This document shows positions 9,169 to 56,810 of a DNA stretch of 60,327 bases, piece after piece. Both the position numbers and the translations under genes were made by a program. Source of the stretch: a virus (lineage: Duplodnaviria; Caudoviricetes); the IMG/VR virus record IMGVR_UViG_3300032288_004972, positions 1 through 60,327 of that record; one strand, given 5' to 3'. The notes beneath the pieces were generated by a model. It had not been told where the DNA came from and did no database searches. It was given only the letters and a program-made list of their open reading frames with translations. Position 1 is the stretch's first letter; every line of letters begins with the position of its first letter.

Positions 9169-9527
9169 TGCCAGCCAGTCTTGACGATATTCTAACAACC
9201 CAGAAAAACGGCGTCATTGCGCTGAATGCTATTCAGCAGTCTCTTGCGTCTGAAGTCGCGACCGTTACGACGGCTGTTGCAACGTCTTCTACTTTCGTCA
9301 TTGCTGGCAAAGGAAGGCTTCTCCGTTTCAGCGTCACGGTCGCTGGATCCGCTGTCGGTTTCGTTTACAACAGCGCGACGCCGAGCGGCGGCGCAGCCTC
9401 GAATGCGCTGGTGGCCTGCCCAAACACGATCGGCGTATATGAAGCAAACGTCGTCTTCGATGCTGGTCTTGTGATCGCGCCCGGAACTGGGCAATCAATA
9501 AACATAACTTATTTGCTGGGGGCTTGA
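9168..9527 (+). CDS. Hypothetical virion protein
   Basis: Translationally coupled ORF in the structural operon. Confidence 0.6.
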   Translation: MPASLDDILTTQKNGVIALNAIQQSLASEVATVTTAVATSSTFVIAGKGRLLRFSVTVAGSAVGFVYNSATPSGGAASNALVACPNTIGVYEANVVFDAGLVIAPGTGQSINITYLLGA

Positions 9528-10027
9528 TGAACGCCGCAATAAAAAATGCTTTGCGGATTGCTCGGGCGACGGGAGGCAAAGTCGTTGCTCATAGCGGGCC
9601 GATTCATTCCTTGGTTGCGGGGCGAACCGATCACCTGCCGATGCATGTCCAGTCGGGGAGCTACGTTCTTCCGGCCGACATTGTCTCTGCAATGGGCGAA
9701 GGAAATACTATGGCCGGATTCAAAGCGGTGAAAATCGCTTTTGATGGAATGCCGTACGATTCTGGTTCAGCGCCTTATGGCGAGAATATGAATCAAATTT
9801 CTGGGGCGGATCTTCCGGGCAAGGCGGAAGGCGGCGGGGTCAAAGAGTCCGCGCTTGTTCCGATTGTTGCGGCGGGCGGAGAATATGTTTTATCTCCGGA
9901 ACATGTCTCAAAAGTCGGAAAAGGAAATCTTGAGGACGGACACAAAATTCTTGATCTTTTTGTAAATAAAATGCGGAATAAGCATATCAAAACGCTTCAG
10001 AAGCTCCCGGGACCGAAGAAGGATTAA
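9527..10027 (+). CDS. Virion-region protein with duplicated AxGG...P..V..G(S/E)YVL domain
   Basis: RATGG...HLPMHVQSGSYVLP and KAEGG...LVPIVAAGGEYVLSP; resembles the FAxGG...GEFV module of tape-measure C-termini. Confidence 0.7.
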   Translation: MNAAIKNALRIARATGGKVVAHSGPIHSLVAGRTDHLPMHVQSGSYVLPADIVSAMGEGNTMAGFKAVKIAFDGMPYDSGSAPYGENMNQISGADLPGKAEGGGVKESALVPIVAAGGEYVLSPEHVSKVGKGNLEDGHKILDLFVNKMRNKHIKTLQKLPGPKKD

Positions 10028-10557
10028 TGAAAATGTTAAGCTCAGTCGAAGTTCGTTTGGGTACGCCGCAGGATGTTGACGGGATGATGAAGCTCGCCAT
10101 TGCCGCTTGCGAGGAGAACGGCGTTCTTGAGCCCAATAAATTCGATTTGCTGCAGGACATTTGGCCCGCATTGAACCTCGATCACGGGATGGCTGGCGTG
10201 ATTGGTCCGATTGGCGGGGAGCTTGAAGGCGCAGTACTTTTGCGAATTGGCAGGCTTTGGTATTCAGAGAATCAAATCCTTGAGGAAAAGGCAATTTTTA
10301 TTCCTGAAGAGTTCCGGAAGGCATCCGGGCAAAGAGCAAGGAAACTTTGCGAGTTTTCTAAATCGATTTCAGACAAATTAGAAATCCCGTTGATGATCGG
10401 CGTTCTCAGCAATCAGCGGACGGAAGGAAAAGTCCGGCTTTACCGCAGAATTTTTGGAGAGCCTGCGGGCGCTTATTTTTTGTACAACGCAAAAACTGGA
10501 AACTGGAAAGAAAATCCTTCTGACACGGCGATCGCCGAAGAAATAACGGAGCACTGA
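10027..10557 (+). CDS. GNAT-fold-like internal virion protein
   Basis: VRLGTPQDV start, IFIPEEFRK motif-A-like segment; position before ejection genes as in P22/T7-like phages. Confidence 0.55.
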   Translation: MKMLSSVEVRLGTPQDVDGMMKLAIAACEENGVLEPNKFDLLQDIWPALNLDHGMAGVIGPIGGELEGAVLLRIGRLWYSENQILEEKAIFIPEEFRKASGQRARKLCEFSKSISDKLEIPLMIGVLSNQRTEGKVRLYRRIFGEPAGAYFLYNAKTGNWKENPSDTAIAEEITEH

Positions 10558-10558
10558 A

Positions 10559-56064: not shown

Positions 56065-56121
56065 TCGCGTTGACCTTCGGACGCTGCACAGACAACGCGA
56101 TCAATCGTGCAGGAGGAAAAA
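56065..56121 (+). promoter_or_regulatory. Candidate H-type pseudoknot abutting an SD
   Basis: Stem 56065-72/56093-100; loop ctgcac 56084-89 pairs with gtgcag 56107-12; SD aggagg 56111-16. Confidence 0.5.
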
Positions 56122-56598
56122 ATGGGTACAACGACTTTCTCAGGCCCAATTCGTGCGGGCGAGATTCGCACGACGACAGGGACGAGCCTTGGCCGCGATG
56201 TAGCGAACACGGGCTACGTCATGATGGTTCAGACTGCAGTCATGAACCAAGCAACGAACGTCGCTTCAACAGGCGTTTACAAAACCAACATCGTTATCCC
56301 TGCAAACAGCCAGATCATTGCGATCAAGCTGTTTAAGACGACAGCATTTAACGGCGTTGCACAGACGCTGAATGTTGGCGTTTCGACAACGGCAACTGAA
56401 CTTGCAGTTGCAGCGGACAACGATGCAAGCACGACCCTCGGTCTTCTTGATATCAAGCCCGGCGATGATGCCACGAGGACGAACAAATGGCTCGATGTCG
56501 GCACGTCTGACGTTCAGATCTACACGAAGTCGACCAACACCGGCGCTGGCGTTGGATATCTCGTCGTTGAATACGCGCAAGCGCGCAACCTGCTCTGA
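56122..56598 (+). CDS. Virion structural protein
   Basis: MGTTTFSGPIR start, IPANSQI; AGGAGG RBS. Confidence 0.7.
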   Translation: MGTTTFSGPIRAGEIRTTTGTSLGRDVANTGYVMMVQTAVMNQATNVASTGVYKTNIVIPANSQIIAIKLFKTTAFNGVAQTLNVGVSTTATELAVAADNDASTTLGLLDIKPGDDATRTNKWLDVGTSDVQIYTKSTNTGAGVGYLVVEYAQARNLL

Positions 56599-56612
56599 TA
56601 GGAGATTGAACC

Positions 56613-56810
56613 ATGGGTGCTTACAAAGGCAAGGCCAGCACGATCAAGGAAGCTGAAGAGAAGACCAGCGGCTTCAAGAAGGGCGGCAAGGCAGAAAAGA
56701 AGGTGATGTCGGAAGCTGCAGAGGGCATGCGCCCTCGTCGTGCTTCGGGCGGCAGTGTCATGTCCTCGGCCGCCAGTGGCACGCCGCGCGGCAAGGCCTC
56801 GCACTATTAA
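56613..56810 (+). CDS. Small basic protein with two xxxGG motifs
   Basis: AGGAG RBS; FKKGG and RASGG. Confidence 0.7.
   Translation: MGAYKGKASTIKEAEEKTSGFKKGGKAEKKVMSEAAEGMRPRRASGGSVMSSAASGTPRGKASHY

Follow-up and report, generated by a model that had tools for sequence, protein, structure and literature searches.

A directional double-glycine motif in six protein families of an uncultured short-tailed phage, a candidate processing seam of channel-delivered proteins

Several packaged internal proteins of phage T4 have in common a short terminal capsid targeting peptide and a gp21 cleavage site, and the cysteine proteases of adenovirus, African swine fever virus (ASFV) and bacteriocin leaders cut after a double glycine. 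Among tape-measure proteins, pb2 of phage T5 is cut 'after R1127', as placed by mass spectrometry in Linares et al. 2023; gpH of phage lambda is cut in its Gly-rich C-terminal region, with neither site nor catalyst known according to published work, and the T5 enzyme likewise. The leader of the P22 ejection protein gp7 is removed by host OpdA after residue 20, directly ahead of K-G-G-K-G-G (GenBank note), and in the passages found of Iyer et al. 2017 (PMC5512222), where the words 'glycine' and 'linker' have 0 occurrences each, processing is predicted for the polyvalent chains of phages and conjugative elements. Here we describe a double-glycine motif, [R/K/F/Y]-[A/K]-x-G-G-x-[V/I], in the genome of an uncultured short-tailed-type phage, IMG/VR record IMGVR_UViG_3300032288_004972, analysed over its whole length of 60,327 base pairs (bp; 'the window'). 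The motif is real, directional, restricted to six protein families, conserved in position and selected at the protein level, and it lies at module boundaries and before terminal peptides. We propose, at a probability of roughly 40%, that it is a processing seam of proteins delivered through the tail channel; a search of main texts found no published description of such a Gly-Gly seam motif.

The strict form of the motif, [RKYF]-[AK]-x-G-G, mostly followed by x-[VI], was drawn from the residues around Gly-Gly in gp10559 and at 2114 sites in 120 homologues of gp50574. All 21 strict matches in the window lie within six proteins (gp9527, gp10559, gp14551, a polyvalent protein, gp50574 and gp56613; Table 1), and the other 66 open reading frames (ORFs; 14,874 amino acids (aa)) contain 0 against 2.35 expected. 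An earlier first-pass annotation of this DNA had reported that these six proteins share one peptide that it did not notice in capsid, portal or terminase, and both observations are borne out, with enrichment seen only in orthologues of the six. The peptides that it quoted are all present, but YERGG, LQAGG and MQYGG do not fit its own, looser pattern, x-[AKN]-x-G-G. Compared with 2000 composition-preserving shuffles per protein across the 72 ORFs, this loose pattern is enriched in gp50574 (14 matches versus 3.4 expected, with 0/2000 shuffles reaching 14), gp10559 (10 versus 4.15, p=0.007) and gp9527 (3 versus 0.64, p=0.02), and borderline in gp56613 (2 versus 0.41, p=0.056). The polyvalent protein (1 versus 1.47) and gp14551 (2 versus 1.89), taken singly, show no enrichment.

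Related genomes display the same restriction. We fetched 160 IMG/VR loci, 80 around homologues of gp50574 and 80 around homologues of gp9527, and added MW202675, which is syntenic with the window and one of only two related records, both metagenomic, in the phage collection. ORFs in these loci were greedy calls on the plus strand, with uncertain starts, matched to window proteins by blastp; loci L001 and L002 overlap, and a few MW202675 ORFs are counted twice. Strict matches exceeded the shuffle expectation in orthologues of gp9527 (152/8.1, observed/expected), gp10559 (157/29.1), gp14551 (22/5.0), the polyvalent protein (62/7.1), gp50574 (660/49.4) and gp56613 (49/3.5), counts that are not independent, the orthologues being akin, so that z-scores are inflated and the qualitative pattern is the result. 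The motif was at or under expectation in the portal, terminase, capsid, scaffold-region, nozzle and adaptor groups (for example portal 4/4.2, TerL 0/1.6, major capsid protein (MCP) 0/3.0 and nozzle 1/9.4), and the other matched groups together were depleted of the forward motif (23 versus 43.1 expected). The signal is directional, at 1102/104 (10.6-fold) for the forward motif versus 240/100 (2.4-fold) for its reverse. Shifted or substituted control patterns had at most a far lower excess than the forward motif, and two substituted ones, with A-A for G-G or an acidic or amide residue at -3, gave 0.9-1.1-fold.

Conservation extends beyond the five residues and is position-specific. Arg recurs at -6 in all six groups, as do Gly or Ala at -4, Val or Ile at +3 and Gly or Asp at +4, an agreement that stems partly from tandem copies with an 8-residue period. 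Motif positions are conserved in gp50574, gp9527 and gp56613, with variable, indel-rich spacers between them; in the gp50574 family (at least 3310 homologues, hypothetical proteins), the K-x-G-G sites are invariant or nearly so while the spacers vary in length. The octapeptide ARATGGKV, previously reported as identical in gp9527 and gp14551, is indeed the same peptide in both, and its codons differ at 7/8 positions, so selection acts on the peptide and not on a DNA repeat.

The joints at which the motif lies are clearest in gp9527, the best conserved of the six proteins (3024 near-length homologues, ~60-70% identity). Its predicted structure comprises two related strand-turn-strand-helix modules and a long helix, in line with the earlier reading of gp9527 as two related modules. 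Both strict motifs precede a module, in low-confidence stretches of the model (predicted local distance difference test (pLDDT) <50 for residues 75-107 and averaging 56-60 for the first 20 residues); the residues right after the first Gly-Gly form short beta-bridges ahead of the hairpin, and in module 2 the turn of the hairpin consists of A-G-G-E. The fold had no counterpart at E<=0.001 in a Foldseek search of the PDB and a best Z of 3.2 in the VIA wide search over 48,161 chains, and sequence searches gave 0 matches in PDB profiles at E<=1, in Pfam at E<=0.01 and in NCBIfam at 0.05.

A further 461 longer proteins (488-2000 aa) contain the gp9527 domain, mostly at the C-terminus behind an N-terminal helical piece, with ART-PolyVal, GNAT, NUDIX, DUF6098, methyltransferase and GP88 inserts. 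In five such fusions compared in detail, 7/7 Pfam domains (ART-PolyVal twice, GNAT twice, NUDIX, DUF6098 and methyltransferase) lie between consecutive motifs and none has an internal motif. The insert of fusion P0313 parts module 1 of gp9527 from module 2, and in P0245 3/4 motifs occur in stretches with pLDDT <50, its AlphaFold2 (AF2) model being poor (mean pLDDT 54.5) and used for linker positions only. Fused GNAT domains are bracketed by the motif, whereas 0/76 orthologues of the stand-alone GNAT gene carry it in strict form. On this pattern, gp9527 is better described as a putative conserved carrier into which cargo is inserted. The proposal that gp9527 reads the motif by strand complementation is not sustained, as gp9527 bears the motif itself and forms the end of hundreds of longer proteins; a predicted complex of gp9527 with gp56613 (scores 0.01 and 0.00 versus a mark of 0.32) amounts to 'no answer' and was used neither for nor against. 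As a separate observation, many gp9527 homologues (P0126, P0139 and others; P0073) have an N-terminal extension, M-P-L-K-K-G ... Q-A-I-A-x-A-L, that by eye resembles the DUF6496 (PF20106) pattern of one gp50574 homologue.

A second setting of the motif is upstream of a terminal peptide. It falls within the last 75 residues in 20/20 gp14551 orthologues, 74/81 gp50574 orthologues, 11/31 polyvalent ORFs and 51/244 unmatched ORFs; among the other 16 groups it does so only in the 52749 group (3/68). In the gp14551 orthologues it lies ~55 residues short of the C-terminus, and the conserved tail behind it ends in an amphipathic helix. This tail, 62 residues long, matches 323 representative clusters; in 150/150 of the representatives listed (proteins of 67-1484 aa) the match ends <=8 residues from the C-terminus, and in 145/150 the motif is 46-70 residues from the end. 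An amphipathic helix of the form A-[ILVM]-x-x-A-[LM] occurs in 30/82 motif-bearing tails versus 16/858 tails without the motif, a comparison made with a post hoc regular expression. A helix of N-A-I-x-K-A-L type, by an expression likewise written after seeing the examples, is N-terminal in gp9527 and C-terminal in both gp14551 and the polyvalent protein, and other polyvalent-type ORFs have related terminal helices behind the motif.

The polyvalent protein holds at least two unrelated effector or enzyme domains in one polypeptide (Pfam LPD23, E 4e-20, and InPase, E 5e-47), with weak M78/DUF6782 zincin matches, and its gene position directly after the portal hints that it may be packaged in the virion and delivered to the host. 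In relatives the motif lies between modules of such chains, for example as G-L-P-x-F-[AK]-x-G-G-x-V ahead of InPase, and also 20-30 residues from the C-terminus; the MQYGG of the window aligns in position with canonical GRA(S/E)GG motifs of relatives. A mini-module at residues 123-143, L-W-D-I-Y-N-x-T-G-x-x-A-D-F-V-R-A-D, stands directly before a motif, and it recurs in otherwise different polyvalent ORFs of eight relatives (L006, L015, L027, L038, L041, L042, L051 and L058).

Motifs in gp50574 are often spaced 8 residues apart, and YADGG is also present among them; Pfam gave 0 families at E<=0.01, so there is no match to PF10685, the KGG stress-protein repeat. At its C-terminus gp50574 carries, in tandem duplicate, a ~33-residue peptide consisting of the motif and S-Y-K-D-M-x-A-G-A-G-S-G-x-G-R-L-E-K-T-E-I; one or two invariant copies of this peptide occupy the extreme C-terminus in the family, and it looks like a separate docking peptide. 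In gp10559, Peptidase_S74 (Pfam PF13884) scores 45.2 bits against a cut-off of 22 and covers two stretches, the better at residues 736-783. Peptidase_S74 domains are known only as self-cleaving (intramolecular chaperone); the third motif cluster of gp10559 starts within ~20 residues after the second stretch.

The genes for these proteins are distributed over two late blocks. The collagen-like tail-fibre gene exits at the right end of the window and resumes at the left end, and because it spans both ends the window is a circularly permuted complete genome. The first block comprises a nozzle-type protein, gp9168, gp9527, the GNAT-like gene, gp10559, gp14551 and fibre-like genes; the second begins with TerL, an SU10-type portal, the polyvalent protein, gp50574 and a small ORF, and continues with a GroES-like gene, a scaffold-like protein of 316 aa, two unknowns, the MCP, a protein of 163 aa and gp56613. 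Two neighbours were considered for a part in the system and set aside. The GroES-like protein was rejected as a reader of the motif, its mobile loop being of the ordinary K-S-G-I-L-L type with no Gly-Gly seam. The GNAT-like protein itself had no match in Pfam; the xAKGG of the GNAT genes (70 versus 20.7 expected with the loose pattern) was discarded as a seam, being a conserved internal stretch, PE(Y/F)R-x-AKGGRAR-x-L, that presumably fits the cofactor-binding motif of GNAT enzymes.

Table 1. Positions of motif-bearing proteins, their motifs and neighbouring genes in the window
Feature	Positions	Strand	Remarks
Collagen-like tail-fibre gene	59476-60327 and 2-1777		spans right and left ends
Nozzle-type protein	7117		late block 1
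gp9527, 166 aa	9527..10027	+	N-terminal helix, two motifs, two modules, long C-terminal helix
gp9527 N-terminal helix	9530-9562
gp9527 motif RATGG	9563-9577
gp9527 motif KAEGG	9821-9835
Stand-alone GNAT-like gene	10027..10557	+	without the motif; counterpart in MW202675 annotated acetyltransferase
gp10559, 1331 aa	10559..14554	+	ejection-type protein, two Peptidase_S74 stretches
gp10559 Peptidase_S74 stretches	near 11399 and 12764
gp10559 lone KAGGG	11603-11617
gp10559 motif cluster 1	11987-12052
gp10559 motif cluster 2	12488-12535
gp10559 motif cluster 3	12968-13015
gp14551, 846 aa	14551..17091	+
gp14551 motif RATGG	16924-16938		55 residues from C-terminus
gp14551 conserved C-terminal tail	16903-17088		ends in helix 17044-17076
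TerL	42189		late block 2
SU10-type portal	43857		late block 2
Polyvalent protein, 1396 aa	46373..50563	+	LPD23, M78-like zincin, InPase; directly after portal
Polyvalent LQAGG	46430-46444
Polyvalent mini-module	46739-46801		residues 123-143
Polyvalent MQYGG	46817-46831
Polyvalent motif FKRGG	49988-50002		just before InPase
Polyvalent C-terminal helix	50456-50488
gp50574, 490 aa	50574..52046	+	pI 10.0, Gly-rich, mostly non-globular by sequence; 9 strict and 14 loose motifs
gp50574 duplicated C-terminal peptide	51843-52043
GroES-like gene	52363-52755		Pfam Cpn10, E 4e-6; between gp50574 and scaffold-like gene
Scaffold-like protein, 316 aa	52749		late block 2
MCP	55120		late block 2
gp56613, 65 aa	56613..56810	+	basic
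gp56613 motif FKKGG	56673-56687
gp56613 motif RASGG	56739-56753		then conserved C-terminal peptide

The closest experimental precedent comes from tape-measure proteins. Two strict motifs occur within the 1219 aa of T5 pb2, and one of them, R-A-E-G-G, begins at R1127. As the cut is placed after R1127 and R1127 is the first residue of the motif, the T5 cut lies between positions -3 and -2 (R1127↓AEGG). A maturation cleavage site, as suggested in the first-pass annotation, thus has a precedent, but in another register: the cut in T5 precedes Ala-x-Gly-Gly and does not follow Gly-Gly as in adenovirus and ASFV. In lambda, where the ORF set holds only four motif matches, two are in gpH, FATGG at 733 and YATGG at 778, with a G-E-F-V stretch between them. 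The tape measure of JBD30 has F-A-S-G-G, a stretch resembling module 1 of gp9527 and then H-A-T-G-G. T5, lambda and JBD30 accordingly present the same order: first the motif, next a hairpin-like G-x-E-[FYV]-V stretch resembling those of gp9527, and later a terminal helix. In addition, the homologue of lambda tail protein I in HK97 (L168, 13834-14442) carries two strict motifs, F-A-A-G-G and Y-A-F-G-G.

We rank processing first because the motif is exposed and directional, because it is conserved at joints and lacking in stand-alone cargo, and because it is the same as a cut site that has been mapped. On this proposal, [R/K/F/Y]-[A/K]-x-G-G-x-[V/I] would be the seam signal of proteins that are held inside the virion and exit through the tail channel, set in exposed linkers between exchangeable modules: enzyme cargo, hairpin modules of gp9527 type, and short terminal helices or peptides. 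An endoproteolytic cut between -3 and -2, as in T5 pb2, would be made after assembly or ejection; the carriers would thereby lose their cargo domains and terminal docking peptides, and gp50574 would be chopped into short basic peptides. Packaging of the six proteins, cleavage of the motif in this phage and the T5 register are inferred. The candidate proteases left are a host enzyme or an adjacent gp9527-type module, since most relatives lack the zincin of the polyvalent protein and scans of the head module revealed no prohead protease.

Several points weigh against processing. The T5 precedent is a single mapped site, at which a coincidence has by our own estimate a chance of ~1% (2 motifs x 5 bonds / 1218 bonds), and its register was read after the fact. 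Profile alignment with hhalign gave gp9527 an E of 0.006 over 21 columns (probability 6%) against lambda gpH, 0.11 against JBD30 and 0.44 against T5; homology to tape-measure C-termini is thus not statistically supported, and the likeness that the first-pass annotation drew holds at the level of the motif only. HK97 has just a F-A-K-G-A-G variant in its tape measure and SPP1 gp18 has none; neither contains the strict motif, which rules out a motif universal in tape measures, and P22 gp7, gp20 and gp16 hold 0 strict motifs. The tandem copies of gp50574 and gp10559, at 8-residue intervals, do not mark joints between domains. In one protein family, encoded just ahead of gp50574 homologues, the C-terminus reads K-R-K-Y-A-[RQ]-G-G-x-V, with a stop 3-6 residues after Gly-Gly (loci L024, L025, L026, L050, L057, L061 and L072), where a cut would release almost nothing and a terminal handle fits better. 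The relatives are moreover uncultured and represented in the phage collection by just the two metagenomic records.

The search for an enzyme also tells against processing. The zincin region of the polyvalent protein is present in 2/38 relatives, and any HExxH in 6/38, so that we rejected this zincin as a universal protease. Scans that covered 9+10 proteins by Pfam, 29 by PHROGs and 10 by NCBIfam, early genes not among them, detected no protease family in the head module and no prohead protease family in 52152-56598; the nearest named cluster of the 52749 protein is a scaffolding protein, at low score. A cysteine protease of adenovirus, ASFV or bacteriocin-leader type was likewise not seen among the proteins scanned. 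In a separate check, natural starts of the form M-[AK]-x-G-G, which would mimic a cut product, numbered 0 in 510 database proteins.

The same distribution can be read without a cut. The motif and the terminal helix or peptide next to it may form a docking or packaging handle that binds a common receptor by strand addition, the receptor being scaffold, portal or the capsid interior and the handle loading the proteins into the procapsid or setting their order of exit, with gp50574 as multivalent glue; we regard this as possible, if somewhat doubtful. It would account for the placement of the motif near C-termini, for the strictly C-terminal gp14551 tail, for the excess of amphipathic helices behind the motif by the post hoc expression and for the ORFs that stop 3-6 residues past Gly-Gly, and tandem copies suggest avidity. 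The earlier idea of a packaging or ejection address is of this kind and is upheld in so far as the motif precedes terminal peptides, but not by the stand-alone GNAT genes, which lack the motif while their fused counterparts are bracketed by it. An address is superfluous at internal seams between enzyme domains, T5 is cut at the same motif, and no receptor was identified. Less probable again, and in our view unlikely, is a structural hinge or module cap, in which Gly-Gly with a beta-branched residue is a flexible turn starting each module, with neither reader nor cut, letting modules fold independently or pass unfolded through the channel. The beta-bridges and the A-G-G-E turn of the gp9527 model fit such a turn, as do the low-pLDDT linkers of gp9527 and P0245, but conserved residues at -3 and -2 and a fixed direction are not expected of a neutral linker, and the hinge leaves unexplained both the T5 cut and one consensus in six unrelated families.

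Two narrower explanations fare worse. In gp50574 and gp56613 only, basic K/R-x-G-G-K/R repeats could bind and neutralise packaged DNA in the manner of internal basic core proteins, any likeness to the other four proteins being coincidental. Both are basic (pI, isoelectric point, 10.0 and 10.1; K+R content 19-22%) and both genes lie within the head module; the core motif, however, occurs in neutral or acidic contexts (F/Y-A-D-G-G-E) in gp10559 and polyvalent proteins, where it cannot be a DNA hook, and Y-A-D-G-G is found inside gp50574 itself, which makes this improbable. An artefact of composition, or a scar left in the DNA by recombination during cassette exchange, we consider hardly credible: the proteins are Gly-rich and modules have clearly been exchanged at the motif, but composition-keeping shuffles never reach the observed counts, control patterns stay at 0.9-1.1, and the scar is rejected by identical peptides that use different codons.

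Were the motif a cut or docking site, it would supply a sequence rule for phage proteins that are carried in the particle and injected, and would make module borders readable across thousands of uncultured phages, where gp50574-type proteins number at least 3310, beside 3024 of gp9527 type and 461 fusions. It would also be a pointer to the unmapped cut in lambda gpH and to the tape-measure enzyme of T5 and lambda, and would show natural sites at which foreign proteins could be inserted so as to be loaded into phage particles. A bolder version, which we think unlikely, extends the processing proposal to one seam code, [R/K/F/Y]↓[A/K]-x-G-G-x-V, in every tail-channel protein of short- and long-tailed phages, with cleavage either by a single conserved host enzyme or by the neighbouring gp9527/GE[FY]V hairpin module, which would act in cis in tape measures and in trans in the window phage. 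If true, it would explain the cleavages of lambda gpH and T5 pb2, so far without an assigned catalyst, and would make gp9527-type proteins modular carriers delivering swappable, host-modifying ART, GNAT, NUDIX and methyltransferase enzymes as cleavable cargo.

Several described systems resemble the six families in part. As in the tape measures of T5 and lambda, the proteins would leave through the tail channel, and the motif lies at the T5 cut and in the region where lambda gpH is cut; unlike them, the window phage is short-tailed and without a tape measure, and spreads the motif over six proteins, one of which has up to 14 copies. P22 gp7 is similarly an ejection protein trimmed, by a host peptidase, beside a stretch rich in Gly-Gly, but in a different register. 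The window chain unites LPD23, a zincin-like peptidase and InPase as the polyvalent proteins of Iyer et al. 2017 do, and relatives carry ART-PolyVal, GNAT, NUDIX and methyltransferase modules; here, however, the carrier appears to be the gp9527 domain, and the proposed zincin processor is found in 2/38 relatives. With the sites of adenovirus and ASFV the motif has in common a double glycine in a short conserved context on virion core proteins, although in T5, the sole mapped cut in the motif, cleavage lies four residues earlier, before Ala. T4 targeting provides the concept of a short terminal peptide joined to cargo by a protease site, whereas in the window no prohead protease was recognised by the scans of 52152-56598 and the signals stand at either end as well as internally. 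By analogy with the T4 internal proteins, processing seam and docking handle could be combined as a terminal address on a cleavable seam, and we class the motif with the processing or targeting signals of virion proteins.

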